41,303 nucleotides of DNA from a virus. The notes beneath the pieces are model-generated. The model worked only from the letters and a program-made list of their open reading frames with translations. It did not search any database and had not been told where the DNA came from. Shown piece after piece: positions 130 through 41,175 of the stretch (the first letter of the stretch is position 1; every line of letters starts with the position of its first letter). Both the position numbers and the translations under genes were made by a program. The stretch lies in the IMG/VR virus record IMGVR_UViG_3300010224_000024. One strand, given 5' to 3'.

Positions 130-1281
130 TTGGAGCATGGGTTGGCTAGACCTATATCCCGATTGAGCGCCCGACAGGTCGCAACCGCGAAGGAAGGCTA
201 TCACGCGGACGGCGGCGGGCTGTACCTACAGGTTAGCTCGAGCGGCACCCGGTCATGGGTGTTGCGCTACCAGTTGCGCGGGCGGCGGCGGGAGATGGGG
301 TTGGGGCCGGCCAGCCTCGTTAGCCTGCTCGAGGCGCGGCAGGCGGCGATCAAGCACCGCAAGGACATACTGGCAGGGGTTGACCCACTCGAGGCCCGCA
401 GAGAGGCGCAGGCGAGGCCGGGAGGCATGACCTGGGGCGAGTGCAAGGCCGCGTTCATCGCCGCCCACCGGGCAGGCTGGAAGAACGAGGCGCAGGCGGG
501 CCAGTGGGAACAGTCGCTCGAGGCTTACGGGCCGAAGGATGGGGTGCTGGTCGCCGGGATAGACACGGCGGCGGTGATGGACTGCCTGCTTCCGATCTGG
601 ACCGAAAAGACGGAAACGGCGACTCGAGTCCGGGGCCGGATCGAGCGGATTCTGGACTGGGCTCGAGTGTCAGGCTACCGGGAGGGCGAGAATCCGGCCC
701 GCTGGCGGGGCCACCTGGACAAGCTGCTGCCCAAGCCGTCCAAGGTTAAGAAGGTTCGCCACCACGCGGCCATGCCCTACGCAGACGTGCCGGCGCACAT
801 GGCGGCGCTCGAGCTTCGTAAGGGGTTCTCTGCTCGAGCCTTGCGCTTCACGATCCTGACCGCCGCCAGGACCGATGAGACAACCGGCGCGACGTGGGAC
901 GAATTCGACCTCGAGGCGGGGCTGTGGACCGTGCCAGCCTCGAGAATGAAGGCGGGCCGGGAGCATACAGTTCCTCTGGCGCCTGCCGCGCTCGAGCTAT
1001 TGCGCGACCTTCCTCGAGACAAGCCGCCATTCAAGCTGTCCGAGAACGCTATGCTCTACATGGTGCAGCGCCACATGAAGCTGCCGTTTACCGTCCACGG
1101 GTTCCGCTCGAGCTTCAGCGATTGGGCGCATGAGACAACCAGCTTCCCAAACGAAGTGATCGAGATGGCGCTGGCACACACGATCAAGAACAAGGCCGAA
1201 GCGGCGTACCGGCGCGGGGCGTTGCTCGAGAAGCGCCGGCAACTCATGCAGGCTTGGGCCGATTACTTGCTCGAGAGCTAA
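130..1281 (+). CDS. int: Tyrosine recombinase / phage integrase (P4-type, DUF4102-like N-terminal arm-binding domain)
   Basis: The N-terminus LSARQVATAKEGYHADGGGLYLQVSSSGTRSWVLRY is typical of P4-family integrases. The C-terminus carries HGFRSSFSDWAHE ... LAH ... AAYRRG (R, H-x-x-R and Y catalytic pattern). The track start is TTG. A TTG at 142 (MARPISRL...) is an alternative start. Confidence 0.93.
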   Translation: MEHGLARPISRLSARQVATAKEGYHADGGGLYLQVSSSGTRSWVLRYQLRGRRREMGLGPASLVSLLEARQAAIKHRKDILAGVDPLEARREAQARPGGMTWGECKAAFIAAHRAGWKNEAQAGQWEQSLEAYGPKDGVLVAGIDTAAVMDCLLPIWTEKTETATRVRGRIERILDWARVSGYREGENPARWRGHLDKLLPKPSKVKKVRHHAAMPYADVPAHMAALELRKGFSARALRFTILTAARTDETTGATWDEFDLEAGLWTVPASRMKAGREHTVPLAPAALELLRDLPRDKPPFKLSENAMLYMVQRHMKLPFTVHGFRSSFSDWAHETTSFPNEVIEMALAHTIKNKAEAAYRRGALLEKRRQLMQAWADYLLES

Positions 1282-1520
1282 CCCACCGTCCGCCAATGGC
1301 TCCGCGCCCACCGCTCGACGTGCCGCTTGGCCTGTTCGGGTGAGCCTGCATAGCCCCACAGGTCGTCCCTGCCGTTGCGGCAAATCTTGACGCTGTAGAG
1401 GCCTCTCAGGTGGCCGACGCACTCACCCACAACGGCGAAGTTGGGACCGCCGAAGTCGCGAAGGTGCGCGTACAGGGGCGGACCGCCGCGTAGGTCTTTC
1501 CAGTGGATCGGCGGGCACAT
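1278..1520 (-). CDS. Hypothetical protein (80 aa) in the integrase-proximal cargo slot
   Basis: ATG-initiated ORF convergent with int; the stop codons overlap. No recognisable motif. Coding status is uncertain because GC-rich alternative frames overlap it. Confidence 0.4.
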   Translation of the reverse strand: MCPPIHWKDLRGGPPLYAHLRDFGGPNFAVVGECVGHLRGLYSVKICRNGRDDLWGYAGSPEQAKRHVERWARSHWRTVG

Positions 1521-1670
1521 GCGCCAAGGATAGCGCCCCGGTCATCGGCCAGCGTCCAGACGCTGCCGGCTGGTGCCATGGGCGGCGGCGGGACGGGGCC
1601 TGACTTCCGGGGCAACCCATCCTGCCAAAGCGCCCTCCGTGGCGCTGTAGTCCATGGCCGGCATCGAGCG

Positions 1671-2096
1671 TCATCCTGTCGCACCGGGGACGTGCGTGAC
1701 CCACCCGAATTGCTCGGGCTGCGGCAGCGAGGCAATTACTTCGGATGCGTCAGGGAAGGTTGCCGGGGGATTGGCGAGGGCGTCCTGTTGCCACTGGAAA
1801 GCCGCCACCCATACGGCATCACGCCACGCAAGGGCTACGCTTGCGTCGGCATCCCATTGGGCGACTGAGCTGCCACGGTAGGAGATACACGAGGCCAGCG
1901 AGTCGTAGCCGTTGGCCTGGGCGGTGGCATCGAGCCAGGCCTGCACGGCGCCGGAGAGTGCGGCGGCGGCATCCGCCAGCGTCGGCGCGGGTGGATCCTG
2001 CGCGTAGGTTTCGCCCGGCAGTAGGTCGGTCGCGGAGGCGATGGCGCGGTAGCTGGTGGAACCGTCAGGGTTCCCGCTGATGGCATAGCCCGTCAT
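1671..2096 (-). CDS. Tail-fibre assembly/chaperone-like protein (DUF4376-like)
   Basis: Lies immediately downstream of the distal tail-fibre gene (3-bp gap). Its size and the WLDATAQANGYDSLASCISY / WRDAVW pattern resemble phage fibre-accessory proteins. Confidence 0.6.
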   Translation of the reverse strand: MTGYAISGNPDGSTSYRAIASATDLLPGETYAQDPPAPTLADAAAALSGAVQAWLDATAQANGYDSLASCISYRGSSVAQWDADASVALAWRDAVWVAAFQWQQDALANPPATFPDASEVIASLPQPEQFGWVTHVPGATG

Positions 2097-2099
2097 GAA

Positions 2100-3038
2100 T
2101 TAGCGCTCATAAAGGTAGCCAAAAACGTCCACATAACCGCCACCTGCTGGGGAGGAGATGAATCGGTATTGCATCTGCTGCGAGCTATTCACGTTCGCCG
2201 GAATGTAGGCAGAGGAATCGGGCGAGATACCAACGCAGCCCTGGCTCACATCGCCTGAGGCGTCGGAGGTAGTGAAGCGCAGCGGAAAGGACGCATCCGT
2301 GTTCGTCAGGCGAACGATTGCGACGCGCGAGGTGGTCGGAACGGAGTCAGCGAGGCTGAAGGTGGTAAAGGAGGTCGCTTTGCCGGCCGACAATGCGCGA
2401 AACGGGCTGGTGTCGAACTGGATGCGATAGACGACCTGCGGGCCAGTCTGCAAGAAGTTGAAGATGCTGCCGCTGCTGTCGGTTTTGACGCTCCCGAGAT
2501 AGCGCCTGCTGGTGTCGCCCGTCTTGCTGCGCGCCGTGCCGTTGTAGGCCGTCGCTGGCGCGGTAGTGACGACCTCCACCGCTGGCGTGCCGGCGTTGTC
2601 GTAGAGATAGACGTGATACCAAGTCGACGCCGAGAGCGAGAGACCCGTCTTGGCGATAGACGAGGCGGCGCGCAGCACCTTGCTGCTGCCCTCGATGTAG
2701 GCTGCGCCGCTCGTGACCGTCAGGGCCGTACCGCTCACCCATTGCATTTGCAGGCCGTCGATGTAGCCCTTGGGGAGCGACGCAAGCACGTCCGTTGCAA
2801 AGTCCTGCCATGATTTGTCACCGCGCCAGTACTGCGACGTGGCCCCCGCTTCGATTTCAGGCTCCGCGCCAACGTCAGACGCGGCGAGGACAACATCGCC
2901 TGTATCGCCATTGACCGAAGTTACGGCGGCTGGGTCGGCAACCTGCAACACCCAGCCCGTGCCGTTGAACTCCCAATTCTTGCCCGAGGCGGCATGGGTA
3001 TCGCCCACAGATGGCGATGCGGGGAAGTTGATAGCCAT
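2100..3038 (-). CDS. Tail fibre protein (distal, receptor-binding candidate)
   Basis: The N-terminus MAINFPASPSVGDTHAASGKNWEFNGTGWVLQV is a common phage tail-fibre opening motif. It follows another fibre gene. Confidence 0.75.
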   Translation of the reverse strand: MAINFPASPSVGDTHAASGKNWEFNGTGWVLQVADPAAVTSVNGDTGDVVLAASDVGAEPEIEAGATSQYWRGDKSWQDFATDVLASLPKGYIDGLQMQWVSGTALTVTSGAAYIEGSSKVLRAASSIAKTGLSLSASTWYHVYLYDNAGTPAVEVVTTAPATAYNGTARSKTGDTSRRYLGSVKTDSSGSIFNFLQTGPQVVYRIQFDTSPFRALSAGKATSFTTFSLADSVPTTSRVAIVRLTNTDASFPLRFTTSDASGDVSQGCVGISPDSSAYIPANVNSSQQMQYRFISSPAGGGYVDVFGYLYER

Positions 3039-4285
3039 CAGGTGACAATCAGTCGGTAGTAGAGGGCTGGGATGACGTGACAGGCGCCGGGCGTGCCGGT
3101 CTTGGAAATCACCACGATGATGTTGACGGCAGAAGCGTCAAGCGCGGCATCAATTTGCTGGTCATGCTGCACGATGGTCGATGCGGCGTCCGCGTTTGTG
3201 CTGAACGACGCGATCAGCGACGCCGTGGTTGCCGCATTCTGGTAGTCGAGGTTAACCGTGTAGTAGTTGGACCCGTCATTGGTCGTCTGAACGCGGGACG
3301 TGACCGCCCATCGCGTCAAATAGAGTTCAAAATCCGACCGTACGGCTGCGCGCCACGACGTAAAGGCGCTGGACACGTTGAAGAAGGAATTTGCACCCTC
3401 GCTCAAGCCAGAGGGCAACGCATACTCCTGGGCCGTCAGCCAACGCGTACCGTCGTAGAAGCAGAGAAGATTTAGGTCTGTGCGGTAGAACTTGTCATTC
3501 AAAGCGGGCGAAGCCGGGAAGCTCGTTCCTTCCGCGTATCCCGAAGTTGGCCCGGAGTAATTGATAACTGGGTTCGCCGGGTCGGTGTTATCGACGGTGA
3601 TGTTGTCTCCCGACGACACCGTCTGCACGGCAGGGCCATCGGCCACGCTCACCGCGTTAGGGCCGAATTCCACCCATTGCGAGGAATCAGCATCCACGTA
3701 CCAGACGTACTCTGTGCCCGTGGTCGTGTCGATCCAGCGCATGCCGGCGACGGGCGAGGACGGTGCCGTGTCGGAAAGGACGCGAATGTCCTTTTCCTCA
3801 ACGCTAGATGCCCGTCCCTTGGCATCAAACGTGACCGTGACGGCCTTTGTCGCGTCGCCATACGTGCCGGCCGTAACGCCCGTGTCGGACAGGTCAGGCG
3901 TGGTTATCCCGTCAGAGTCCGTGGTCAGGGTGACGTTATCGGACTCGGCAAAGGCGTCGGAAATGGCGTACCAGCCCTTCTCACCATCGGCGTTGCTGCC
4001 GTAGTACTGGGTTGCCTCGGGAGCCTCCACGTCCCCCGTGAGGAACACGCTGACAATGCCTGTCTTGAGCGTGCCTCGGGTATAGATCGAGTACTTGCCC
4101 GTGACGTTGGCGTTTTCGCTGATGGGCGTTTCTGGCGGCGTGGTCGTGACGTTGCCGATCTGGTCGGATAGGGCCTGTAGCGAGGTGGCGACGGACTGGA
4201 AAAAGACGTAGTACGGGCGGGTTGCCGTGCCACCAGTTTCGATAACAGGCTGGCGGACGCCCGGCAGGCTGACGTTAAGCGACAT
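3038..4285 (-). CDS. Tail fibre protein
   Basis: 415 aa, Ser/Thr/Gly/Asp-rich and beta-like in composition. Sits within the fibre cassette and is coupled to its neighbours by overlaps. Confidence 0.7.
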   Translation of the reverse strand: MSLNVSLPGVRQPVIETGGTATRPYYVFFQSVATSLQALSDQIGNVTTTPPETPISENANVTGKYSIYTRGTLKTGIVSVFLTGDVEAPEATQYYGSNADGEKGWYAISDAFAESDNVTLTTDSDGITTPDLSDTGVTAGTYGDATKAVTVTFDAKGRASSVEEKDIRVLSDTAPSSPVAGMRWIDTTTGTEYVWYVDADSSQWVEFGPNAVSVADGPAVQTVSSGDNITVDNTDPANPVINYSGPTSGYAEGTSFPASPALNDKFYRTDLNLLCFYDGTRWLTAQEYALPSGLSEGANSFFNVSSAFTSWRAAVRSDFELYLTRWAVTSRVQTTNDGSNYYTVNLDYQNAATTASLIASFSTNADAASTIVQHDQQIDAALDASAVNIIVVISKTGTPGACHVIPALYYRLIVT

Positions 4286-5069
4286 TGACCAGCCCGATGG
4301 CGAACCAGCTAAAGGGAATGTCGCTGGCGATGGTGTTGTTGGCGTTGGCGCCCTCGGCTACGTCAAATACCGCCGTAAAGCCTCCCGTAGTCGGCGCAGA
4401 GGTCAGATAGGGCACAACAGGACCGCCCGGCTGAACGGTGAGCGGCGTGACACCCACATGCAGGACCGTGGCAAAGGTCTTGGCGAAGGTGATGGCCTTG
4501 CTGGTCGTGAACGTGCCGCTGGCTGGCGCAGTCGAGGTGCCAGCCTGGATATAGAACGCCTTGGAGTTGGTATTGCCGGCCTGAAGGCTGGCCGTGCCAA
4601 CAGTGAGCGGGACTTCCGGGTCCTCGGGCGGGTCCTGCCACACGAGGCTGGTGCCATCCGAACCGAGAATCTTCCCGCCCTGCCCCGTGGGATCGGGCGG
4701 CGAGACAAGCTCAAGCCACTGAAGCACCGCGCCGTCGTTGGACAGCACCTTCCCAGCCTCTAGCGCCGGAATGGCCGCTCCGTCACCGCCTGGAATCTCC
4801 ACGTTGTCATCATCGGAGATGAGCGTGTCGTCGGCGGCATAGACGCGCACCCGATATGAGCCGTCGCCCCACACGTCCACGGTCGTCCGGCCATCGGAGC
4901 CTAGATCGACGCTGGAACCGTTATTGCTCGCCAAGTCGGCGTCGCCGTACACGTCCTTTGCCGTGGTCGTCCCGGCCTCGTAGAACTCGATCCGGCCACC
5001 TGCGGCAGGTGTTACCCCATCCAACAGGAAATAGACAGGGGATTGGATGGGGATGCGGAAAGCGGGCAT
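4275..5069 (-). CDS. Tail fibre / tail-attachment protein
   Basis: First gene of the fibre cassette. The N-terminus MPAFRIPIQSPVYFLLDG...GGRIEFYEAGTTT resembles virion-attachment N-domains of podoviral fibres. The call rests mainly on position. Confidence 0.6.
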   Translation of the reverse strand: MPAFRIPIQSPVYFLLDGVTPAAGGRIEFYEAGTTTAKDVYGDADLASNNGSSVDLGSDGRTTVDVWGDGSYRVRVYAADDTLISDDDNVEIPGGDGAAIPALEAGKVLSNDGAVLQWLELVSPPDPTGQGGKILGSDGTSLVWQDPPEDPEVPLTVGTASLQAGNTNSKAFYIQAGTSTAPASGTFTTSKAITFAKTFATVLHVGVTPLTVQPGGPVVPYLTSAPTTGGFTAVFDVAEGANANNTIASDIPFSWFAIGLVNVA

Positions 5070-5080
5070 GGAAGCTCCAA

Positions 5081-5110
5081 TAAAAAAGCCGCCCGAAGGC
5101 GGCTTTGTTT
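5081..5110. terminator. Bidirectional rho-independent terminator between the ejection-protein genes and the fibre cassette
   Basis: Stem AAGCCGCC / GGCGGCTT (5086-5093 / 5098-5105) with a CGAA loop. It is flanked by an A-run on one side and a T-rich tract on the other. On the minus strand the stem is followed by TTTTTATT. Confidence 0.8.
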
Positions 5111-5129
5111 GGTGATGCTAGTGTGCTGG

Positions 5130-5306
5130 TCAGTGAGGGATGATGCCTAGCGCGACGCCTAGCCAGCGAAGAAACTTCGCAATTAGGAATGTGAGCCCAA
5201 TCATGATGCCAAGCCTGAGCCAGGAAAGTGCAGCATCAACGGCCCGCTTTGACCATGTGATCAAAACGCCGCCGTTTTCCTCGCTGTTTAGCTTCTGAAG
5301 TTTCAT
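5130..5306 (-). CDS. Small membrane protein (58 aa, read by hand)
   Basis: ATGA overlap with the stop of the 661-aa gene. Translation is MKLQKLNSEENGGVLITWSKRAVDAALSWLRLGIMIGLTFLIAKFLRWLGVALGIIPH, with a hydrophobic C-terminal half. Local GC is lower than the surroundings, and the terminator follows. Confidence 0.5.
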   Translation of the reverse strand: MKLQKLNSEENGGVLITWSKRAVDAALSWLRLGIMIGLTFLIAKFLRWLGVALGIIPH

Positions 5307-21961: not shown

Positions 21962-22570
21962 TCAAAGGGTGTCGCTGTCCCGGCTGGGCGCGCGGTGGAA
22001 ATTTCCATCCCCACCACGGCTCAGCTCGTTTTCCGAAGGAACAGCACCCCTTACCCTCAGTGTCCCACGCTGAATCTGCGAACCGCATCGACGTTCATAA
22101 AATGCCACTTGCCGGAAGGCGATGCCGTACCGCTCCCAATACTCCGAAAGGCTCTTGGCGAGACGGCGGCAGATGGCGTTGCGCAGGCGTCGGTAGGTGT
22201 TCCGATGCACTCCCAGGTCGTCCGCTAGAACCGTGTAAGGCGCAATCTCCCTGTTGAAGATGAGCATGTACAGGGCATCCCATCCGGCCACGCAGGCAAG
22301 CTCGTCGCTGTACACCTCACGCTTCACGCCACCATCCATGCAGTAGGCGATGGCGAAGGCTACGACCCACTGGCGCAGCATTGGAAGGTGGCAGGAGTCG
22401 CCGCAGTAGGCGGTTCGGGCTAGCTCCCAATTAGGAAATCCATTGCGCCAATCCGTTCGCACCATCCGGTCGGCGTCGATATGGGTTGCGGTGACGCCGC
22501 ACACCATGGCCGTATCGAAGTCATGGCCGCGCACGTCGTAGTCGCCAACTTCTTTCAGCAGCGCGTTCAT
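21962..22570 (-). CDS. Putative late-gene regulator at the Q position (HTH-containing)
   Basis: It is the last early-right gene before a ~220-bp non-coding leader and the lysis and morphogenesis genes. It has an HTH-like segment LADDLGVHRNTYRRLRNAICRRLAKSL. No confident family assignment. Confidence 0.5.
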   Translation of the reverse strand: MNALLKEVGDYDVRGHDFDTAMVCGVTATHIDADRMVRTDWRNGFPNWELARTAYCGDSCHLPMLRQWVVAFAIAYCMDGGVKREVYSDELACVAGWDALYMLIFNREIAPYTVLADDLGVHRNTYRRLRNAICRRLAKSLSEYWERYGIAFRQVAFYERRCGSQIQRGTLRVRGAVPSENELSRGGDGNFHRAPSRDSDTL

Positions 22571-23184
22571 GCGGCAGCCCTTCCGTCTCGGTAGCTAAGC
22601 AGGGAGAAAATGGCCTCTTGGCCGGTGATTTCGCCCACCACCACGGCAAGCTCTCGGGCGATGGACTCCGCGCCTTCGCGCCCGCACTGGCCCACGTCGA
22701 TCCACTCACCTCGGCGCTTGTGGTCGGCGTAGCTACGCAACATGGCTAGCTCAGCCTGTCGGGCTACGGCGCGGCTCGGAATCTTCGTGGTGAACACCCA
22801 CAGGCAATCCAACGGGTTCCCGGTGGCGATGTTGTAAAGCCGCTGCTCCGGGTGGCCGGTCATGCCAACCTTCAGGAAGTTGGCGATACCCCGCAGACCG
22901 TAGAAGCCCAAGTAGCAGTAACAGGGGCCAATCCGCATGGCGGCGACTTCCCGTGCCGCCTCTTGGGTCGTCGGCATCGTCTCCAACGCCTGACGGATGG
23001 CGTATTGCCTGATCTTGTCGTGGTCGCCATCGGGGTTCTGGAATATCAGCGTCTCGATCAGCCGCTCCGCATAGAGGCGTTGATTGCCGTCCAACCCCTC
23101 AATCGTCAGACGCTCACCCTCGTCTAGGGCTTCCAGGTAGATCGGGGAGGCGAAGGAGTCGCGCTGCTCAACGAGGAATGTCAT
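22567..23184 (-). CDS. T5orf172 (MUG113, GIY-YIG-like) domain protein, copy A
   Basis: The likely start is the ATG at 23184 (MTFLVEQRD...). The C-terminal half, CYCYLGFYG...LKVGMTGHPEQRLYNIATGNPL...GEWIDV, matches the T5orf172 pattern. Confidence 0.7.
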   Translation of the reverse strand: MTFLVEQRDSFASPIYLEALDEGERLTIEGLDGNQRLYAERLIETLIFQNPDGDHDKIRQYAIRQALETMPTTQEAAREVAAMRIGPCYCYLGFYGLRGIANFLKVGMTGHPEQRLYNIATGNPLDCLWVFTTKIPSRAVARQAELAMLRSYADHKRRGEWIDVGQCGREGAESIARELAVVVGEITGQEAIFSLLSYRDGRAAA

Positions 23185-23224
23185 GCCGACACCTCGCCTA
23201 CGGCCTGGGGGATGGTGGCGGTGG

Positions 23225-23362
23225 TCATGCCTTGCGATCCTTGAGCGCCGCAATCACGAGTGACGCAGCAAGCCAAACTGATGCGTCGGCGGTGTTCTGA
23301 CTGCCAACCAGCCACAACACGCCGAGTACGAGGCACCAAAGTTGGATCAGCCCAGTCCTCAT
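23225..23362 (-). CDS. Small two-TM membrane protein (45 aa, read by hand)
   Basis: ATGA overlap with the exonuclease stop. Translation is MRTGLIQLWCLVLGVLWLVGSQNTADASVWLAASLVIAALKDRKA. Confidence 0.45.
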   Translation of the reverse strand: MRTGLIQLWCLVLGVLWLVGSQNTADASVWLAASLVIAALKDRKA

Positions 23363-24964: not shown

Positions 24965-25507
24965 TCAGACCTCGCAGAGCTTGAAGTTTGCGAAGGAGTT
25001 AAGCGCCGCTCCCGCTACCTCGGTAAGCGACTCAACGATTGACCTTGCCGCCTGATCGGAAAGCGCGCCGACACTGACCCATTCGCCATGGACAGCATCA
25101 GCGGCCATGTGCTTGAGAAGTGCCGCCTCAACGATCAAGGCTTCTTTTTTTGTGCTGAACCAAGCTGAGTACGTCCAGAGCTTCGGCAGCGGATTGCCTG
25201 TCTTTATCCCGGCCATGCGTGCCTTCACGTTCTTCGCCACGCCGATCTTCATATGCGACGCGCGCTCGTTTTCCCCATAGAACGAAAGGTAGACGTAGGT
25301 ATGGTCGCCAGTTGACTCGCACTCCCTCAGCGCGCGGAACATCTCCGTCCGCGTTTGATCGAGATAGCCGGGCGGGAAAGGCATGCGCCTAAGAAACTCG
25401 AACAACTCATAGATCGTAGCCACATGGTCCGACGTGACCTTGTCCTTCAATTGCTGCAAGCCGTAGGCAAGGTTGTTGAAGTCGACCTCTTCAGTCGTTG
25501 CGCTCAT
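24965..25507 (-). CDS. T5orf172 (MUG113, GIY-YIG-like) domain protein, copy B
   Basis: TYVYLSFYGENERASHMKIGVAKNVKARMAGIKTGNPLPKLW...HGEWVSV aligns by eye with copy A. The gene has lower GC than its neighbours. Confidence 0.7.
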   Translation of the reverse strand: MSATTEEVDFNNLAYGLQQLKDKVTSDHVATIYELFEFLRRMPFPPGYLDQTRTEMFRALRECESTGDHTYVYLSFYGENERASHMKIGVAKNVKARMAGIKTGNPLPKLWTYSAWFSTKKEALIVEAALLKHMAADAVHGEWVSVGALSDQAARSIVESLTEVAGAALNSFANFKLCEV

Positions 25508-27960: not shown

Positions 27961-28127
27961 ACCTGCCCCGTCGCGTCTTTCCAGGCGCGCAGCCAGCGGT
28001 AAGCCGTGGCGTTGGATACGTCGAAGTGGCCCCGAATGAGGGCCGCAGTAAGCGGCAGGCGGCAGTTGCGGCACCACTCGCCAAACCGAATCCAGAACTC
28101 GGGGCCGTAGAGGTTGCGGGAGGTCAT
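27957..28127 (-). CDS. Small HTH-like protein (56 aa, read by hand)
   Basis: ATGA overlaps at both ends. Translation is MTSRNLYGPEFWIRFGEWCRNCRLPLTAALIRGHFDVSNATAYRWLRAWKDATGQV. Confidence 0.5.
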   Translation of the reverse strand: MTSRNLYGPEFWIRFGEWCRNCRLPLTAALIRGHFDVSNATAYRWLRAWKDATGQV

Positions 28128-28681
28128 TCCTCGTCCTCCCCTTCCGGCGACACGCGCAGGGTTTCCGCGATCTTCGCCAGATGCTCGGCCACGACTTCTG
28201 GTGAGGCGGGCTTGTGTTCCGGCTCCGTCTTTTCGATCAGCGCCACCGGGTTGACCGGGAGTGTGCCGCCCTCCATGACGAACTCGCGGGTGCGCTGGAA
28301 GGCTTCTTCAAGCAACCGATCCGCCACCTTGCCCGACGAATTGCGGTAGCCGTAGGTGTCGAGCCGTGCCAGTACCCCGCGAGCGAACCGGGAAATGATC
28401 GGGCGGACGTCCGGCGCTCCCAGCGGCTTGGTGTACTTCAGGTAATCGACAACCTCACCCCGCACGCTGGCAATCGACGGGATGCCAAGGCACATCGCCT
28501 TGAACTTCGCGGAGCTGGGCGGCCAGTTGTCGGCGCGCAGAACGTCAGCCTCGAAACCCTCGCGCAACTGTTCCGGCGTGATACCGGCCAGCGTCCCGCG
28601 CCACTCTGCCGCCGCGATGCCGTTCGGCTGCGCGCCGAAGTTACTCACCCAGGCGTTGCCGTAGCGGCTAGCCATCCGCAT
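28124..28681 (-). CDS. Replication protein P-like (helicase loader)
   Basis: WRGTLAGITPEQLREGF...NWPPSSAKFKAMCLG parallels lambda P (ENGITTMEQVNAGM...PFLPSPGQFVAWC). The likely start is the ATG at 28681 or 28675, overlapping the end of the O-like gene. Confidence 0.7.
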   Translation of the reverse strand: MRMASRYGNAWVSNFGAQPNGIAAAEWRGTLAGITPEQLREGFEADVLRADNWPPSSAKFKAMCLGIPSIASVRGEVVDYLKYTKPLGAPDVRPIISRFARGVLARLDTYGYRNSSGKVADRLLEEAFQRTREFVMEGGTLPVNPVALIEKTEPEHKPASPEVVAEHLAKIAETLRVSPEGEDEE

Positions 28682-29459
28682 CCACAGTTCGGCAGTAACC
28701 GATTTGGGCAAAGGGCTGGACGTAGTCGTCGTCAGGTTCGCTGGCGAATTGCTCGCGGATGGCCTGCTCGACTTGTTCGACAGCGCTGAGTTTGCGGCTT
28801 GACTGATGGTTTGCATTAGGTTTCTCCGAACGCGGGACGTAAATGCCCTGCCACCCGCTTTCGATGGCGGTTTCGATTAGGAATACCGGGTCATTACCGG
28901 CGAGGCGAAGCTTGACGAGCTTGTTAATCGTTAATTCGGCGGCCCGCTGGGAGAGCGGGCGCTTAATGGAGGCGCGGTGTTCGACCCAATCAGTCCAAGT
29001 CGCCTCCGGAAGCCAGTCGGGCAACGTCACGTCTAACTGACGGTTGCTCTTACGGTTCAATGACGGTTCTTTACGGTTAGGGTGCACCTGCTGCACCGGT
29101 TGGTGCGGGAGCTGCACCGGTACCGGTGCGGGAGCTGCACCGGTTGATGCGGCAGGTGCACCGGTGCTAGAGCTGCACCGGTGCGGGAGCTGCACCGGTT
29201 GAACATATGCGGCAGGCTTCAAGTGGTAGGTCGTGTGCCTGCCATTCGTGCGGTCCGCGATAATCGCGCCCTGCTTTTCAAGCCATGCAATCGCGTCAAT
29301 AACAGCGCGTTTTGAGAAGCACGTCCTCTCGCTAATGGTCATTAGCGACGGCCAGCAATAACCCTGGTCGTTGGCGTTATCCGCCAGCGAGATAAGCACG
29401 GCCTTCTGCGTAGGGGGCATTTGCAGGGGCCAGCACAGGGCCATTACGGCGGTACTCAC
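28668..29459 (-). CDS. Replication initiator (O-like; N-terminal winged HTH)
   Basis: The N-terminus QKAVLISLADNANDQGYCWPSLMTISERTCFSKRAVIDAIAWLEKQGAI is HTH_36-like. A low-complexity linker is encoded by the iteron array. It lies upstream of the P-like gene. Confidence 0.75.
   Translation of the reverse strand: MSTAVMALCWPLQMPPTQKAVLISLADNANDQGYCWPSLMTISERTCFSKRAVIDAIAWLEKQGAIIADRTNGRHTTYHLKPAAYVQPVQLPHRCSSSTGAPAASTGAAPAPVPVQLPHQPVQQVHPNRKEPSLNRKSNRQLDVTLPDWLPEATWTDWVEHRASIKRPLSQRAAELTINKLVKLRLAGNDPVFLIETAIESGWQGIYVPRSEKPNANHQSSRKLSAVEQVEQAIREQFASEPDDDYVQPFAQIGYCRTVDADG
29040..29199. repeat. Origin-of-replication iteron array inside the O-like gene
   Basis: Four phased ACGGTT repeats start at 29040, 29052, 29063 and 29073. 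Six (C/G)TGCACCGGT repeats start at 29091, 29112, 29135, 29156, 29173 and 29190. The 20-mer GGTGCGGGAGCTGCACCGGT occurs 3 times. Confidence 0.8.
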
Positions 29460-33775: not shown

Positions 33776-33957
33776 GCGGCTACAGCGACCTCCACGCCCA
33801 CGAATCCGACGACGAACGCAACGCCGTCTGCGCCGAACTGGCGCGCATGTTGCGGATCGTCCCCCTCAACCCGCTGGCTGCCCCTGAAGTCCCGTCGCTC
33901 TCCCCCGACGCTGGGAAGGACGGGGCAGTCGGCGGACTTCTTGGAGATGTGGCATGA
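33772..33957 (+). CDS. Hypothetical protein (61 aa)
   Basis: ATGA-coupled ORF. Confidence 0.5.
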   Translation: MSGYSDLHAHESDDERNAVCAELARMLRIVPLNPLAAPEVPSLSPDAGKDGAVGGLLGDVA

Positions 33958-34531: not shown

Positions 34532-34535
34532 GGAC

Positions 34536-34751: not shown

Positions 34752-34860
34752 CAACCCCCGCGAGCTGCTGGCGTACTCCTGGGGTACGGCCACTGACAGC
34801 AGCAACGGACCCCTATTCCACACACCGAGCCGAGCGGGTTGTTCTCGGCAGGATTATTGA

Positions 34861-35490: not shown

Positions 35491-35491
35491 A

Positions 35492-36355
35492 ATGACGAAC
35501 CTAGTAGCAGCGAGCGGCATCGGCACCGAACAGGTCGAGCTGATCAAGCGGACCATCGCCAAGGGATCGACGGACGACGAGTTGAAGCTGTTTGTCGCGC
35601 AGTGCCAGCGCACCGGCTTGGACCCGTTCGCCCGTCAGATTTACGCGGTGAAGCGTTGGGACAGCCGCGAGCGTCGAGAGGTCATGTCGATCCAGGTCAG
35701 CATCGACGGCTTCCGCCTGATCGCGGAGCGCAGCGGCAAGTACGCCGGGCAGCTTGGCCCGTGGTGGACCGCCGATGGCGAGAAGTGGGTCGATTGCTGG
35801 CTGTCTAACGTTGCGCCAGCCGCAGCCCGCGTTGGCGTGATGCGCTCGGACTTCGCAGAGCCGCTGTTCGCTGTGGCCCGTATGGACAGCTACCGCCAGC
35901 TCACGAAGGAAGGCAAGCCTGCTGGCCTGTGGGGAAAGATGCCCGAGCTGATGCTTGCCAAGGTGGCCGAGGCGCTGGCCCTTCGCCGCGCCTTCCCTGC
36001 CGAGCTTTCCGGCCTCTACACGGCCGACGAAATGGCGCAGGCGGACAACGGCGCTGCCGTGGTCGAAGTGACACAGGTTTCGACGGTCAAGGCTCTTCCC
36101 GCTGGCAAGCCCACCGATGGCGCGTGGGAAGCCATGACCGAAGAGGAACAGGCGTACTTGCAGGGAATCGCCACGCAGGCCGGCGAGTTGCTGGCATCCG
36201 GTGACGCCGAGGCCGCCCACGACTACATCCAGAGCCAGAACCTGGACTCGGACGAAAAGATCGCGCTGTGGACCCGCCTGGACAGCAAGCAGCGTTCCGC
36301 ACTCAAGAGGGCCGATGCGGCGGCCAAGGCTAAGGCTCAACAGGAGGCAGCGTAA
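35492..36355 (+). CDS. bet: Single-strand annealing recombinase, lambda Bet family
   Basis: [31 protein letters not shown] and [28 protein letters not shown] parallel the conserved blocks of lambda Bet. Confidence 0.82.
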
Positions 36356-36780
36356 TGGGCAAGGGCGTCAACAAAGTCATCATCGTCGGCAACTTGGGCA
36401 ATGACCCGGAAACCCGCTACACGGCAGGCGGCACGGCCATCACGTCACTGTCTATCGCCACGTCCGAACAGTGGACCGACAAGCAGTCCGGCGAGAAGCA
36501 GGAGCGCACCGAATGGCACCGCGTGAAGCTGTTCGGCAAGCTCGCGGAAATCGCCGGCGAGTACCTGAAGAAGGGCCGCCAGGTCTATATCGAGGGCTCG
36601 CTTAGGACGGATAAGTACACCGACAAGCAGGGCGTCGAGAAGTACTCCACCGACATCATCGCCAACGAACTCCAAATGCTCGGCGGGCATGGCGAAGGCG
36701 GGGCGCGGCGGTCGCAGGATCGCGAAGCCCAAGCGCCGGCTCCTTCCTCTGACTTCGATGACTCGGACGTGCCGTTCTGA
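36355..36780 (+). CDS. ssb: Single-stranded DNA-binding protein
   Basis: [19 protein letters not shown] ... TEWHRV ... an acidic tail ending DFDDSDVPF. Confidence 0.93.
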
Positions 36781-37199
36781 TGGATGCCCTGGTTGAAAAG
36801 CCGTGCGGCAGGTGTAAGCGCATTCTGCCCGCTTCCGAGTTCAACAAGGACAAGTACGCGTCCACAGGGTTGCGCAGCCAGTGCAAGGACTGCATGGCAA
36901 TTGATCGCAGGCAGCGCGCCGAATACTACCGCGCGTGGCGACAAAAGCCCGTGGTTCGCGCTTGGTACAGACGCTACAGGAGCGAGCGGGCCTCGGCTGA
37001 GAAGATCAAGCGAGATGCACGCAATGCAGCGCGCTCCTTGGAGCGCCAGCCTTGCGAAGTATGCGGGGCTCAAAAGGCCCAGGCGCACCACGACGACTAC
37101 AGCAAACCGCTGGACGTTCGGTGGCTATGCACAACCCATCACGCGGAATGGCACAAGCACAACACGCCAGTCTGCCCGGAACAGGAGCAAGCAGCATGA
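36780..37199 (+). CDS. HNH-type endonuclease-like zinc-finger protein
   Basis: CGRCKR...C.DC near the N-terminus and CEVCGAQKAQAHHDDYSKPLDVRWLCTTHHAEWH near the C-terminus. Confidence 0.65.
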   Translation: MDALVEKPCGRCKRILPASEFNKDKYASTGLRSQCKDCMAIDRRQRAEYYRAWRQKPVVRAWYRRYRSERASAEKIKRDARNAARSLERQPCEVCGAQKAQAHHDDYSKPLDVRWLCTTHHAEWHKHNTPVCPEQEQAA

Positions 37200-37582
37200 G
37201 CGATTCCCTTCTGAGGCCCGCCATGACCGAGAGCAAGGTGGATGATAACGAGTGCGCAGCCGCGTGGCTGTGCCAAGCGCCGGATGACGGCATCCGCACT
37301 TCCGTCGTTGCCAAGGCGCTGGCAGATATGTGCGAGCGCAATGGCTGGGAGGTATGGCCTCTCTACCTACGGCGCGAGAACGACGACAGCGCCGCCGTAG
37401 CCGCCATTCAGTTCGCCTTGCACGGTGAAGAGGGCATGGCGTTCCTTCGCTGCTGGAACGAAGGCAACTTCGACGCCTGCCGCGAGGAATGGCCGGAAGC
37501 TCCCGACGAGTGCTACATCGGTGCCGATCCGCTATTCGCCTCTCTCGCCGCCTGCACTCCCGCCAAGTCGGAGGGAAGGTGA
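37196..37582 (+). CDS. Hypothetical protein (128 aa)
   Basis: The ATG at 37196 overlaps the upstream stop (ATGA). Confidence 0.55.
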   Translation: MSDSLLRPAMTESKVDDNECAAAWLCQAPDDGIRTSVVAKALADMCERNGWEVWPLYLRRENDDSAAVAAIQFALHGEEGMAFLRCWNEGNFDACREEWPEAPDECYIGADPLFASLAACTPAKSEGR

Positions 37583-37926
37583 TGGGCAAGAGCTATCCGC
37601 TGGACGTTCGTAGCTGCGGCGGTGACACCTACATCGTCTACAGCAAGGGTCACCACGACCCGGAAACCTTCATGCGCGAGGTGCGCCAGGAATACCAACA
37701 CTGGCCGCTCGGCTATCCGAAACAGTACTGGTGGCGAACGGTCCCGGCACCGCACGGATGGACAGAGGAACACGGCTACTGCGACAGCTATTTCGTGGAA
37801 GCGTCGGCCGGAGCGCCGGGCGCGTATCCGGTGACCGTGAGCTACGAGGCGTGGGGCGAGGACATATACGAAGCCGTCCGCGACCGCCCCGCCACCCCCG
37901 CCAAAGGAGAGAGCAAGAATGGCTGA
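37582..37926 (+). CDS. Hypothetical protein (114 aa)
   Basis: ATG at 37582 (TGATG coupling), with GGAGGGAAGG upstream. Confidence 0.6.
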   Translation: MGKSYPLDVRSCGGDTYIVYSKGHHDPETFMREVRQEYQHWPLGYPKQYWWRTVPAPHGWTEEHGYCDSYFVEASAGAPGAYPVTVSYEAWGEDIYEAVRDRPATPAKGESKNG

Positions 37927-38623
37927 GAAATTCAACGAAGCCGATGTTCTGGCGTTGTGGCGCTGCGCTCGGAAGCACAACAGTTCGATCCCCGACGAGG
38001 CGCTGAACGCCATGCGCAAAACGCTACTCGACACCCTGCGCCTTCCAGCCGGGAGGGTGGATGAGGGGGTGGCGGGATTGTGCCAGCGCAACCCAGCACC
38101 GAATGCAGCGCAGCCGATGGCTGTCACTTCGCCTACCGTCAACCTTACCGCCGCCCTCGCGCAGAACACGCAGGGAGAGGCGGTGGCGCCGTTCATCGTC
38201 GGGAATGCGTATCAGGCAAAGGCCGGCGAGCTGGTGCGGTTCGTCAGCGTCCACAACGAAGGCACCCGCGACGAAACAATGGCGGACGAGGATGGCGTGC
38301 ATCGCTACACACGCCGCGACTTTGGCCGCGTTACCGGAACCGCGCACGACTACAGCGACCCGCGCAATACGCCGCCGCTCTACACCCGCCCCGCCGAGCG
38401 CGCGAGGGTGCCGGAGGGATGGGCGCTGGTTCCGATCAAGCCAACGCAGCAGATGTTGGATGCGATGGGCGCTTGTGAGTATCCCTTGAACGCTTGGGAT
38501 GAAGCCCTCGCCGCCGCCCCGTCCCAGCCCAAGGATGCGGACCCGCGCAACTACGTGAGCGGCAGCGTCGATCACGCCGGCGAATTCCACCCGACGATCC
38601 AGCGCGCGGCGGTGAAGCCGTGA
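37919..38623 (+). CDS. Hypothetical protein (234 aa)
   Basis: ATG ORF coupled by overlap. Confidence 0.65.
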   Translation: MAEKFNEADVLALWRCARKHNSSIPDEALNAMRKTLLDTLRLPAGRVDEGVAGLCQRNPAPNAAQPMAVTSPTVNLTAALAQNTQGEAVAPFIVGNAYQAKAGELVRFVSVHNEGTRDETMADEDGVHRYTRRDFGRVTGTAHDYSDPRNTPPLYTRPAERARVPEGWALVPIKPTQQMLDAMGACEYPLNAWDEALAAAPSQPKDADPRNYVSGSVDHAGEFHPTIQRAAVKP

Positions 38624-38853
38624 GCCGCCTTGATCCGCAGCCAGGCGAGACGTTCTTCCATACGTCGTTTGCTGGCGGGTGCGAGGTGCGCATCCTCAAA
38701 CGGGGAGTGCGCAAAGGATGGGGTGAGGCGGTTTGGTTCGAGCTTCGTCCGGCCAAGGACGAGCCGATCAGCAACCCGCACCGCATCTCTCGCATGACGA
38801 CGTGGCCCAGCTTCGCGGCTGGATTCACTGATGCACGGCCGGAGGTGAAGTGA
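38620..38853 (+). CDS. Hypothetical protein (77 aa)
   Basis: Overlap-coupled ORF. Confidence 0.5.
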   Translation: MSRLDPQPGETFFHTSFAGGCEVRILKRGVRKGWGEAVWFELRPAKDEPISNPHRISRMTTWPSFAAGFTDARPEVK

Positions 38854-39638
38854 TGGAGGCGATGACGCTGGAACAGGCGATGCCGATGGATACCGCGCCG
38901 CGCGATGGAACGATGCTGCGCCTGCTGGTGCGCTTCACCGAGCACGCGACCGATGATGCCGAGGAAGCCTGGACTATCGGGAGCAACAGCTTCGACGCCA
39001 ACGGCGAGGACGTGTGGCAATTCGCCGGCTGGTGCTGGATGCACGATCACTTCACGGAGGGGAAAGGAACGCCGATTGGCTGGCTTCCCATGCTCGCCAA
39101 CCTCGCCCAGCCTGCGCAGGCGGTGGATGTGGGGGCGGACTTCGGCGCGATGAATCGTGCGCTGTGCGACTTCGCCATGCGGTGGGAAATCGACGGCGAT
39201 TACATGCGATGCCTGAAGTGCAAGCGTCCGCAGATCACCAACTACGCCAGCCACGACTTTCCACACGCGCATGGCTGCAAGGCGGCGGGCAACGTCGAGG
39301 CGCGCCCGTGGGAAACCTTCGCGCAACTGCTATCACCGCTCACCCGCGCCATCTCCGTCCAGAAGGCGGGGCCGGTGGGGGATGGGTGGAAGGTGTTGCA
39401 AATCGGCGCAGTTGGTTGCGCCTATGACCCGCCGAACACTTACCGCGCCTTCACCTACGACCATCAGCCGGGAAACGGACTGGCGTGGAGCCTCGGACAG
39501 GCGGCACTGACCGCAGCGGGTGCAACTGCCGGCGATAACATCGACCGTGGCCTGAGCCTGTTGAAGGCGTTGGAGGCGCAAGGATTCGGCGTATTCCAAC
39601 TCCCCGCCTCCCCCACGCCGGACAAGGAGGGGAAATGA
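38850..39638 (+). CDS. Hypothetical protein with a DUF551-like N-terminal region (262 aa)
   Basis: MPMDTAPRDGTMLRLLV ... GWLPM resembles DUF551. The C-terminal region has a Cys/His cluster. Confidence 0.6.
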   Translation: MMEAMTLEQAMPMDTAPRDGTMLRLLVRFTEHATDDAEEAWTIGSNSFDANGEDVWQFAGWCWMHDHFTEGKGTPIGWLPMLANLAQPAQAVDVGADFGAMNRALCDFAMRWEIDGDYMRCLKCKRPQITNYASHDFPHAHGCKAAGNVEARPWETFAQLLSPLTRAISVQKAGPVGDGWKVLQIGAVGCAYDPPNTYRAFTYDHQPGNGLAWSLGQAALTAAGATAGDNIDRGLSLLKALEAQGFGVFQLPASPTPDKEGK

Positions 39639-39997
39639 ACGCAGACGTGGAGAAGGCGGTGGAGGCGTTGGATAGCACGGCGCTTGCGATGCACCGCGAC
39701 TGGAACACGGTGAAGCAATCCCTGCGCGACCAGGAGGTGGAGATTGTGAGGCTGCGGGGCTTGCTGGGCGAGTGCTACGCCATTTCCGGTGCAGACACGG
39801 ACGGCGAGCCGCCCGAGCGTTACGCGGACATTGCCGTGCAGGCTGTGAAAGACCTTCGCCAAGACTACGACGACGTTCTGGACTGGCAGGATCGAGCCGA
39901 GAAGGCCGAGGCGCTGCTGCGTGAAGTCCTGCTGCTGCTGCATCCCGACCTGACCGAACACACCCGCATCACCGCCCACCTTGGAGCCGAGCAATGA
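39635..39997 (+). CDS. Hypothetical coiled-coil protein (120 aa)
   Basis: ATGA-coupled ORF. Confidence 0.6.
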   Translation: MNADVEKAVEALDSTALAMHRDWNTVKQSLRDQEVEIVRLRGLLGECYAISGADTDGEPPERYADIAVQAVKDLRQDYDDVLDWQDRAEKAEALLREVLLLLHPDLTEHTRITAHLGAEQ

Positions 39998-40173
39998 GTG
40001 AGCCGGAATGGAACGAATATCTGGAAATGGTGAGCGACAAGATCAGGCGAGGCGAGCCGGTGGGTCTGGTGCAGGCCCTCGCCGCTATCGACTACCAGCA
40101 GGCATTGCAGGCTTACGCCAAGCACAACGTTTGGTGGCGCCGACTTGGGAGGTGGATTCGTGGACAAGCCTGA
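39994..40173 (+). CDS. Hypothetical protein (59 aa, read by hand)
   Basis: ATGA overlap with the upstream gene. Translation is MSEPEWNEYLEMVSDKIRRGEPVGLVQALAAIDYQQALQAYAKHNVWWRRLGRWIRGQA. Confidence 0.45.
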   Translation: MSEPEWNEYLEMVSDKIRRGEPVGLVQALAAIDYQQALQAYAKHNVWWRRLGRWIRGQA

Positions 40174-40498
40174 CCTGATGGCGGAACTGGCGGAGGTGCC
40201 CGTGGTGGCCTACGCATGGCGCAAGGAAGGCATGGTTGGTTGGGCGTTGGGCCACAACCCGCCGACGCCGAACATGCCCGACTTCGACAAGTACGAAGTG
40301 CGCGAACTCACCTTCCGCACCCACCACGCCGAGCTAGAGGCGGCGGTGAGGAAGGCTGCACGGTACGACTGGCTGCGGGAGCATGAATGGAACTACCCGA
40401 TAGTGAAGCTGTACGAATCGGACTATGACAACGCAACTGGCGATGAACTGGACAACGCCATCGACCAAGCCATGCACAACAGCGCGCGGGAGGGGTAG
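40160..40498 (+). CDS. Hypothetical protein (about 112 aa)
   Basis: The GTG at 40160 is preceded by GGAGG at 7 nt. The track start at 40145 is an alternative. Confidence 0.55.
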   Translation: MDKPDLMAELAEVPVVAYAWRKEGMVGWALGHNPPTPNMPDFDKYEVRELTFRTHHAELEAAVRKAARYDWLREHEWNYPIVKLYESDYDNATGDELDNAIDQAMHNSAREG

Positions 40499-40750
40499 AT
40501 GGAACTCCGAACCAAACTGCGCCCAGTGGGCAGCCGCATGTCGCCCGATGGCGAGCCGGCAGACGCTTGGCATGATGCGAAGGTGGCTCATGCGCTGGTG
40601 CGTGAGCTTGGGTACATGCGCAAGGCCGCAGACGAAACGCCGCGCACACATGAGCGTCGGTTGGTTCTGAACCTACTGGACGTGATGGAGCGCCGAGCGT
40701 CGGAACGCATGGCCCAATGGGGCGCTGAACAGAGCGCGAGGGAGGGGTGA
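40499..40750 (+). CDS. Hypothetical protein (83 aa)
   Basis: The ATG follows directly after the upstream stop. Confidence 0.55.
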   Translation: MELRTKLRPVGSRMSPDGEPADAWHDAKVAHALVRELGYMRKAADETPRTHERRLVLNLLDVMERRASERMAQWGAEQSAREG

Positions 40751-40978
40751 GTGATGCTTTGCTTAATCGGCCTGCACCGGTGGAAGCCCAAGTGCAGTCA
40801 ATTCACGATATGGGCCGATCCCTGGGGTTTGTCTGCGCTCTACAGCATGCGCAGTGCGCTCCGAAGCATTGGCCATGACCCAGGCCCTATGCCCAACTTG
40901 TTCAAGATCGGCTGGGCTCCATCCGGGAAGGTCTGCACAAGATGCGGACTTCGCAAACACAAGAAGGTGACGCCGTGA
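40751..40978 (+). CDS. Hypothetical protein, DUF1660-like
   Basis: The N-terminal CLIGLHRWKPKC and a C-terminal C..C pair resemble the small prophage DUF1660 proteins. The call is weak. Confidence 0.45.
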   Translation: MMLCLIGLHRWKPKCSQFTIWADPWGLSALYSMRSALRSIGHDPGPMPNLFKIGWAPSGKVCTRCGLRKHKKVTP

Positions 40979-41175
40979 GCGCCGTACTACTACCTCGCCG
41001 AGAGGTCGAGAAGCGCGTGGGCCTGAAGCGGTCCGCCATCTACGACCGCATGGCCCGAGGAACCTTCCCCAAGCCCATCCACGACACCGAGAGCGCGACC
41101 GTCTGGTGGCTCGAGTCGGACGTTGATTCGTGGGTCCAGGCCCGCATCGACGCCTCGAGAAAGCAGGCTGCGTGA
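40975..41175 (+). CDS. xis: AlpA-family excisionase / transcriptional regulator
   Basis: LLPRREVEKRVGLKRSAIYDRMARGTFPKPIHDTESATVWWLESDVDSW matches the AlpA/Xis HTH pattern. It is the last gene before attR. The likely GTG start at 40975 overlaps the upstream stop. Confidence 0.82.
   Translation: MSAVLLPRREVEKRVGLKRSAIYDRMARGTFPKPIHDTESATVWWLESDVDSWVQARIDASRKQAA

Follow-up and report, generated by a model that had tools for sequence, protein, structure and literature searches.

A phage integrase and excisionase module saturated with CTCGAG in a genome that is otherwise free of the word

Clusters of the Dam site GATC are known to work as switches that are read through their methylation, as in SeqA sequestration at oriC, in the hexamer repeats of the P1 pac site, and at the transposase promoter of IS10. 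Negative control aimed specifically at the integrase gene is known as well, both from the sib/RNase III retroregulation of phage lambda and from the autoregulation of TorI and IntS in KplE1. Restriction sites in phages are usually seen purely as liabilities that are removed by selection, and the avoidance of palindromes in phage genomes is an established phenomenon (Rusinov et al. 2018, PMC6286503). Here, we describe a phage genome (IMG/VR virus record IMGVR_UViG_3300010224_000024; the whole stretch of 41,303 nucleotides that was analyzed is called the window below) in which one such palindrome, CTCGAG, is missing from the phage body and crowded into the two genes that flank the attachment site attP, the integrase gene int and the excisionase gene xis. 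The word is under two opposite selections in this phage lineage, one that purged it from the phage body and from host DNA and one that saturated int and xis with it and kept it there. Selection has driven it in these two genes to the maximum that the encoded proteins allow and, by way of amino acid changes, beyond this maximum.

The CTCGAG island in int and xis

An exact search found 17 copies of CTCGAG in the window, of which 15 lie in int (at 237, 328, 388, 517, 623, 662, 808, 833, 910, 939, 991, 1013, 1107, 1225, and 1270) and 2 in xis, and none occurs between 1276 and 41109. A preliminary description of this DNA, which relied on a scan by hand, had reported the same absence and had placed the two remaining copies at 41110 and 41154 in a gene of the AlpA/Xis type, one of them with an AGA codon; the search agrees with it on all of these points, with the AGA codon in the copy at 41154, and revealed no sites that had been missed. 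As a total for the whole window, 17 copies are unremarkable (15.6 ± 3.4 in dinucleotide shuffles), and the anomaly therefore lies wholly in their distribution. All 17 fall into an arc of 1,414 bp that runs from 41110 across the ends of the window to 1275, in good agreement with the segment of about 1.5 kb named before, and only 0.46 copies are expected there (P for at least 17 copies ~3.5e-21).

This arc is continuous in the sequence itself. The record is a complete circular phage genome of 41,248 bp plus an assembly overlap in the form of an exact 55-bp direct duplicate at the two ends of the window, and an integrated prophage is ruled out. The molecule must be circular because the right end of the window runs on into the P' arm of the phage attachment site and not into a tRNA gene. 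The earlier view that xis, attP, and int are contiguous was hence correct, but they are so in a circular genome with an intact attP and not by virtue of excision from a prophage.

Composition had been expected to yield on the order of ten sites in the remaining 40 kb, and this estimate held up, with Markov models of orders 0 to 4 predicting 13.3, 14.5, 11.4, 13.0, and 9.1 copies for the body, which is far from zero. Synonymous-codon shuffles of the 64 body genes, as called by a simple picker of open reading frames (ORFs) based on GC content at third codon positions (GC3), contained 9.3 ± 2.9 copies with a minimum of 1 in 1000 shuffles (Poisson probability of zero copies ~9e-5), and not one of the 207 positions in the body at which CTCGAG could be formed synonymously is realized. 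Words that differ from CTCGAG by a single base are indeed as common in the body as the hand count had suggested, with 15 copies of GTCGAG, 14 of ATCGAG, 17 of CTCGAC, 8 of CTCGAA, and 24 of CTCGAT.

The sites in int occupy all three reading frames (8 as CTC-GAG encoding Leu-Glu, 4 as nCT-CGA-Gnn, and 3 as nnC-TCG-AGn), and the island makes use of the rare codons CGA and AGA, of which AGA accounts for 1% of the Arg codons in body genes. Of the 16 positions in int that synonymous codons could turn into a site, counting from the likely start codon at 163, 15 are realized, and the last one could not coexist with the site at 237; shuffles of the codons within int yielded 1.9 sites on average and never more than 7 in 20,000 trials. 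The number of possible positions is itself high in this gene (16 vs 9.3 ± 3.0 in other integrases). An alignment of 117 homologs places about 9 to 10 of the 15 sites where the family consensus encodes other residues, namely GPT, QE, IA, LR/LK, LA, RRA, LD, AER/AGR, and VA, and the replacements that make sites include those of QE, IA, LR, or LA by LE, of RRA by ARA, of AER by ASR, and of GPT by SSS. Two of the three synonymously possible positions in xis are realized, with a one-base neighbor at 41054 as the sole unused one. CTCGAG is the only word of 5 to 8 nucleotides that contrasts the module with the body, and the flanks of the sites are variable, without any extended consensus around them and without a family of direct repeats in int or xis. 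Because the sites use three frames and rare codons, consist of the only contrasting word, and share no flanking consensus, the target of selection is the DNA word and not a peptide or a codon habit.

All 17 sites lie inside the ORFs of int and xis, and they are thus confined to two genes that are dispensable for lytic growth. The intergenic attP region between these genes (41177-41248 plus 1-162, ~235 bp) has no CTCGAG in the window or in any of its relatives. Its arms contain repeats of TTCCGG/TCCGGAA, near positions 28, 38, 48, 90, and 100, and of CATGGGT(T/A)G, near 124, 137, and 41177, which are candidates for Int arm-type and Xis binding sites. A role of CTCGAG as binding site of Int or Xis was rejected on the grounds that these candidate arm repeats (TTCCGG, CATGGGTTGG) do not contain the word.

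Integrases with 90% to 95% identity to that of the window were found in independent metagenome contigs that represent four lineages, and all of them carry the island. Contig L001 has 12 int sites and none in 3 kb of flanking DNA, L125/L126 have 11 in int and 2 in xis, L043/L044 have 7 in int and 1 in about 10 kb of phage body, and L015, which covers half of int, has 7 in this gene and 3 in xis. Expressed as realized over possible positions, the members of this clade score 15/16 (window), 12/14, 11/13, 7/8, and 7/8, compared with 58 of 1866 positions (3.1%) across about 190 integrases of less than 80% identity. These other integrases of the family, including those of related phages that are 65% to 76% identical, contain 0 to 3 CTCGAG each, and no island of any hexamer was found in another integrase lineage among 158 to 200 loci.

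The site sets of the clade are almost nested, with 7 sites within 11 within 15. Every site of a relative is also present in the window (12 of 12, 11 of 11, and 7 of 7), while 6.0, 3.5, and 1.9 would be expected from the divergence of the genes, which have identities to the window at third codon positions outside the sites of 0.77, 0.64, and 0.61. Three sites of the window are missing in L001, each by a single base, and L015 has an extra site through a K-to-R replacement; site positions also turn over between the relatives, chiefly in xis. Since codon positions 1 and 2 of the clade's int genes are far more alike (identity 0.91-0.97) than position 3 (0.61-0.77), the integrase protein is under purifying selection. 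The sites themselves arose under positive selection and have since been preserved by purifying selection, and their gain and retention in independent relatives exclude an artefact, engineering, or chance as their origin. The clade is known from metagenomes only, given that the best integrase match among isolates is 66% identical (185,579 species genomes searched); cultured relatives in a phage collection gave only partial integrase matches of 67% to 78%, none of them with the island.

Nucleotide homology among the contigs that carry the island extends from the start of xis to the stop codon of int and then ends, and the attached phage bodies are largely unrelated. The unit is therefore the xis-attP-int module. 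The suspicion that this module might have a k-mer signature different from that of the remaining phage was not borne out: With CTCGAG masked, it ranks 31st to 43rd among 207 windows by 3-mer and 4-mer distance, and GC3 is 0.82 in int and 0.77 in xis, typical of the body genes (0.77 ± 0.04). The module is also free of the other palindromes that are avoided by the phage (see below) in all members of the clade, except for 1 CTGCAG in L125 and 2 CAGCTG in L043. Selection has therefore been reversed for CTCGAG alone, and the module is not simply indifferent to restriction.

Avoidance of CTCGAG in phage bodies and host DNA

The absence of CTCGAG from the body is real, as the preliminary description had held, but the word is not alone in this respect, since at least 6 palindromes are avoided completely. 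Besides CTCGAG, the body lacks CCGCGG (20-37 copies expected), GGGCCC (11-36), CTGCAG (12-18), CACGTG (9-15), and GAGCTC (12-16), and the range of expected counts over these five is 6 to 37 each. CGATCG, GGATCC, and CAGCTG are close to zero (2, 1, and 2 copies vs 10-27 expected), and AGGCCT, TGGCCA, and GTCGAC are strongly depleted, too. This broad anti-restriction profile is unusual for a single phage. Given that at least 6 GC-rich 6-bp palindromes are at zero, the absence of CTCGAG from the body is in itself ordinary avoidance of several restriction enzymes at once, where restriction is the agent suggested by the word statistics. The earlier interpretation of the depletion as restriction avoidance is thereby upheld both by the purge of several Type II-like GC-rich palindromes from the body and by the composition of the probable host chromosome, and so is its judgment that the combination of avoidance with a dense island is the unusual part, considering that the island is saturated, uses three frames and amino acid changes, and is conserved in relatives.

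The host can be approached through the attachment site. The attP core of 15 bp (TGGCGGAGAGAGAGG, positions 1-15) matches the 3' end of a host tRNA-Ser(GCT) gene; an empty attB is present within tRNA-Ser in a Rhodanobacter metagenome-assembled genome (MAG; contig L325), where TGGCGGAGAGAGAGG runs directly on into GATTCGAACC, and in the integrated relative L043 host DNA gives way to phage DNA exactly at base 1 of the window. The chromosomal flank of this relative belongs to the Rhodanobacteraceae, with a Ppx protein that is 90% identical to that of Rhodanobacter sp. MAGs and about 85% identical to that of Dyella. From this one integrated relative, which shares the attP core, we infer that the host of the window phage is a soil bacterium of the Rhodanobacter type. 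The tRNA-Ser gene of attB was seen in host contigs only, and no tRNA gene was found in the window. At the attachment locus itself (L325 13242-13389; L043 4417-4485), the minus-strand tRNA-Ser(GCT) gene stands opposite a plus-strand sequence with a tRNA-like 3' end (GTTCGTCCACCACCTCTCTCCGCCA), with a hairpin terminator between the two, and ARAGORN calls tRNA-Ser alone; the GTTCGTCCACCACCTCTCTCCGCCA element may be the tRNA remnant of an earlier integration.

Host DNA (L325, L328, and L043 1-4400; 47.4 kb) contains 3 copies of CTCGAG vs 15.8-20.1 expected and is thus depleted about 6-fold. This is the strongest depletion among the palindromes that were tested in host DNA, with CCGCGG at or near expectation and CTGCAG and GTCGAC reaching or exceeding it or lying close to it, and it suggests that a CTCGAG-specific system has long been resident in the host lineage. 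An explanation of the island by a word that is over-represented in the host, such as Chi or an uptake sequence, was rejected in view of the same depletion. Extending the palindrome counts to related phages, as the preliminary description had proposed for these and for the host, revealed an approximately 2-fold depletion of CTCGAG in phages without the island (observed/expected 0.48-0.57). In the clade with the island, DNA outside the module contains no copy in 39.8 kb of the window and 1 copy in about 37 kb of its relatives. Strict avoidance and island therefore travel together, and the host shuns the word as well, which argues that one CTCGAG-reading agent is behind both and argues against avoidance in the body as a mere relic.

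Candidates for the reader of the array

A Type II restriction-modification system of the host is the most economical candidate for this agent, because CTCGAG is a perfect 6-bp palindrome, has been purged together with others, and is the recognition site of XhoI and PaeR7I. XhoI originates from a Xanthomonas. The reading that we favor, with a probability of roughly one in three, is that an XhoI-type system of the host reads the array and that only the lysogeny module depends on the methylation state. CTCGAG would be read as double-stranded DNA by this system of the Rhodanobacter-type host, and the array would act as a fuse on the lysogeny module. In a genome that carries the methylation of the host, int and xis would stay intact and integration as well as excision would be possible. 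In an unmethylated genome inside a restricting cell, cuts would be confined to the 1.4-kb xis-attP-int arc, which would be broken into fragments no longer than about 150 bp, apart from one of about 330 bp that carries attP. The 39.8-kb body would stay whole with two mutually compatible 5'-TCGA ends, and it could be resealed or rescued by host ligase or by RecT, NinB, SSB, and Endo VII of the phage. As an outcome, lytic growth would be kept and lysogenization would be lost, so that lysogeny would be open only to hosts with the same type of modification, and foreign strains that restrict the phage could be killed instead of being made immune lysogens. That the phage lineage has in this manner turned a host restriction site into a switch for lysogeny between kin and foreign hosts, with a lytic genome that is invisible to the enzyme, is a possible further step to which we hold more tentatively.

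Such a system would be in keeping with the gene content of the phage, which includes a full recombination and repair set and, it seems, no methyltransferase or restriction enzyme of its own, given that motif scans of the window and its clade relatives as well as Pfam and PHROGs searches of 30 genes returned no credible one. Several points weigh against it. No enzyme specific for CTCGAG and no methylation of the word was found, and a genomics and methylome paper on Rhodanobacter describes many restriction-modification genes and does not report a CTCGAG motif. A phage free of the sites would escape the enzyme entirely, so that the benefit of a cleavable module is a rationalization, and the benefit of a single cut would saturate at few sites, so that 17 of them, some obtained by amino acid change, would fit dose dependence better. 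Unmethylated rolling-circle tails would be cut about 18-22 kb from the terminase genes, which would abort headful packaging. Deletion scars, that is, bodies rejoined via one CTCGAG, were not found in the only two searchable contigs that carry this xis; the scans for the scar pattern matched just the two known contigs of the clade and one unrelated sequence by chance. Finally, the pattern is present in one young clade among the 158-200 integrase loci, and the strategy would be a rare one.

A dose-dependent reader would be provided by a factor unrelated to restriction for which the word serves as a private negative tag, available for this use after restriction pressure had cleared CTCGAG from elsewhere, and which keeps Int and Xis very low unless they are strongly induced. 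It could act by mRNA decay or a translation block at CUCGAG or as a roadblock or silencer on DNA, with each site adding to the effect. Saturation and amino acid cost make the selection look additive and suit such a tag better than a trigger that needs one cut, and the confinement of all sites to transcribed coding sequence, away from the attP region in every clade member, fits it as well. Leaky Int and Xis are costly for a prophage, int-specific post-transcriptional control is an established principle, late transcription is probably antisense through int (see below), and the paradox of a self-inflicted restriction liability would be removed. Also, in the fold predicted for the int mRNA, 8 of the 15 CUCGAG copies form pairs among themselves, but the load of sites adds only about 10 kcal/mol to its stability (-517.7 vs -507 ± 4); RNA structure was rejected as an explanation, this difference not being decisive. 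A perfect 6-bp palindrome is moreover a hallmark of dimeric DNA enzymes and not of RNA motifs, CTCGAG is absent from the putative Int arm repeats (TTCCGG) and the other attP repeats, there is no known effector that recognizes CUCGAG or CTCGAG, the module does not encode one, and one encoded in the body would not be inherited together with the module, because the attached bodies differ. We consider such a tag somewhat unlikely. A pure methylation readout by a CTCGAG methyltransferase of the host, where fully methylated, hemimethylated, and unmethylated sites report a resting prophage, freshly replicated DNA, or newly arrived DNA and modulate int and xis expression or intasome assembly, would draw on the same host depletion, which suggests a CTCGAG-specific system in the lineage. 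It would account for a dense cluster of methylatable palindromes next to a recombination site, has precedents in clusters of methylation sites that work as switches, and could scale with the number of sites. Yet the known switches lie in promoters, origins, and protein-binding sites and not within ORFs like all sites here, and the turnover of positions, in xis especially, suits a fixed protein-DNA architecture poorly. With no reader protein known in Xanthomonadales, no methyltransferase found in the phage, and restriction-modification varying by strain and hence unreliable as regulatory input, this explanation is unlikely.

If under-methylated copies were occasionally cut at the array, which lies in the sole dispensable region, the breaks could alternatively be the purpose of it, feeding RecT, NinB, SSB, and Endo VII with ends that start sigma-mode replication or promote the exchange of xis-attP-int cassettes between phage bodies. 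Recombination hotspots have classically been created by in vivo cutting of lambda at an XhoI site. The phage has a complete recombination module, the island module sits on unrelated bodies with homology confined to the stretch from the start of xis to the stop codon of int, and a low cutting probability per site would let the benefit scale with their number. Breaks roughly opposite the terminase genes would, however, disrupt the headful packaging of concatemers, gene conversion stimulated by a break overwrites the allele that was cut and would erode the sites instead of building them up, and a useful device of this kind should be widespread and not limited to one clade, which together make a programmed hotspot quite improbable. 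Least of all do we believe that the island has no function. The dipeptide Leu-Glu is frequent, as are the codons CTC and GAG in GC-rich genomes, and certain GC-rich viral contigs have CTCGAG in abundance along their whole length, which could speak for a by-product of codon or dipeptide usage; but such a habit was rejected in light of three frames that include rare codons, of 15/16 vs 3.1% realized positions, and of 15 vs 1.9 sites under shuffling of int codons. Foreign origin of the module was dismissed given its ordinary k-mer signature and GC3 and the gain of sites within the clade, as was a tandem-repeat or low-complexity origin given variable flanks, no repeat unit, and sites at conserved, non-repetitive positions of a globular enzyme. 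A VSP-type repair bias that generates the word should have made it abundant in the host genome, which is depleted, and an assembly or engineering artefact is out of the question in view of identical sites in four independent metagenome lineages that diverge by about 25-40% at third positions. This divergence also excludes that the relatives are copies of one sequence spread by cross-contamination. A by-product of any of these kinds is highly improbable, and mechanisms outside those named here are unlikely.

If restriction-modification does read the array, this would be an unrecognized link between host defense and the lysis-lysogeny decision by which a phage discriminates home from foreign strains, and if the switch is real, restriction sites would for the first time be seen to be positively selected in a phage, and restriction-modification systems would have a new way of influencing whether phages lyse or lysogenize. 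If another agent reads it, an as yet unknown sequence-specific regulator of lysogeny genes is implied. All 17 sites can be removed by synonymous recoding, which makes the question directly testable, and the pattern suggests a genome-wide screen for words that a mobile element contains in a single module and nowhere else.

Genome context and comparison with known systems

The coordinates of the module and its surroundings are listed in Table 1.

Table 1. Location of the CTCGAG sites and of associated features in the window.
Feature	Coordinates	Strand	Remarks
Left overlap copy	1..55		100% repeat of 41249-41303; 1-15 is the attP core
int, P4-type tyrosine integrase	163..1281	+	ORF opens with TTG at 130; likely start is TTG at 163
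CTCGAG island in int	237..1275		15 sites
CTCGAG-free body	1276..41109		39,834 bp; late genes on minus strand, early genes on plus strand
xis, AlpA-family excisionase / recombination directionality factor	40975..41176	+	66 aa; Pfam Phage_AlpA PF05930, E=5e-11
CCCGAG in xis	41054..41059		GCC CGA GGA, one base off; CTCGAG in L125 and L015
CTCGAG in xis	41110..41115		CTC GAG, Leu46-Glu47; conserved in L125 and L015
CTCGAG in xis	41154..41159		GCC TCG AGA with rare AGA; window-specific; L015 carries another extra site close by
P-arm side of the xis-int intergenic attP region	41177..41248		Without CTCGAG
Strong intrinsic terminator for minus-strand transcripts	41217..41237	-	9-bp stem followed by TTTTCTT; between attP and xis
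Right overlap copy	41249..41303		Duplicate of 1-55

The integrase is composed of the Pfam domains Arm-DNA-bind_3 (PF13356, 1.2e-20), Phage_int_M (PF22022, 1.1e-20), and Phage_integrase (PF00589, 1.4e-9) and has thousands of homologs, of which the nearest named ones are from Rhodanobacter, Stenotrophomonas, Xanthomonas, and Lysobacter. In L125 and L015, too, xis is found next to attP and int. Apart from the module, the genome is that of a lambdoid temperate phage, with late and structural genes on the minus strand (TerS, TerL, portal, capsid, and tail fibers) and early genes on the plus strand (CI-like repressor, RecT, SSB, an Endo VII/HNH protein, NinB/Orf, and helicase loader); the Pfam and PHROGs searches additionally identified an RNase H-like exonuclease and two T5orf172/MUG113 proteins. 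No terminator separates the 3' end of int from the last late gene (1278..1520, minus strand), and a strong one follows only at 41217-41237, so that late transcription probably reads antisense through all of int and attP before it ends there, which may be a way of shutting off int late in infection.

A few other features of the body were observed. In the Endo VII/HNH-type nuclease encoded at 36780-37199 (plus strand), the first ~45 residues match a PHROG of Lar-like restriction alleviation proteins (E=4.5e-8), although this match may perhaps reflect just a common zinc ribbon. The T5orf172/MUG113 domains, which are GIY-YIG-like, are found in the proteins encoded at 22567-23253 and 24965-25507, both on the minus strand. 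Beside the helicase-loader gene (28124-28816), three overlapping direct repeats of about 40 nucleotides (GGAGCTGCACCGGT...; 70-100% identical) at 29108-29202 may be origin iterons or operators.

We searched IMG/VR for three CTCGAG within about 100 bp and obtained at least 120 matches, and only contigs that are globally rich in CTCGAG or tandem-repeat genes were seen among the matches listed, which makes this a weak negative result. Two examples of dense CTCGAG, L236 2547-3226 and L271 1642-3150, are tandem-repeat or low-complexity coding sequence, for instance with repeats of a RSGIGAPAGRGSG-like unit, and represent a different phenomenon. In the literature, we found no report of restriction-site islands in integrase genes or of positively selected restriction sites in a phage gene.

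Compared with the systems outlined at the beginning, the module conforms to other P4-type integrase/AlpA modules in its domain architecture, its AlpA-type factor, its attB at the 3' end of tRNA-Ser(GCT), and its 15-bp core, but it differs by 15 CTCGAG in int from the approximately 190 P4-type integrases compared, which have 0 to 3 each. As in lambda sib and TorI/IntS, int and xis are singled out for control, and late transcription converges on int here, too; those systems work through one structured RNA element or through attL operators, whereas a word is repeated 15 to 17 times through coding sequence in the present case. Like the Dam GATC clusters, the island is a local hyper-density of a short methylatable palindrome in which the number or density of sites matters, but the GATC clusters occupy non-coding DNA with a regulatory or binding role and are served by a known methyltransferase and reader protein, while the CTCGAG sites are all within ORFs, with none in the promoter/attP region, and turn over in position. 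The body without CTCGAG and five other Type II-like palindromes, along with the CTCGAG-depleted host, closely resembles described cases of restriction-site avoidance (PMC6286503), the theory of which predicts depletion everywhere and not the saturation of the same word in two genes. We therefore rate the combined pattern of avoidance and island as outside any known kind, with body avoidance and integrase module themselves being of known types.

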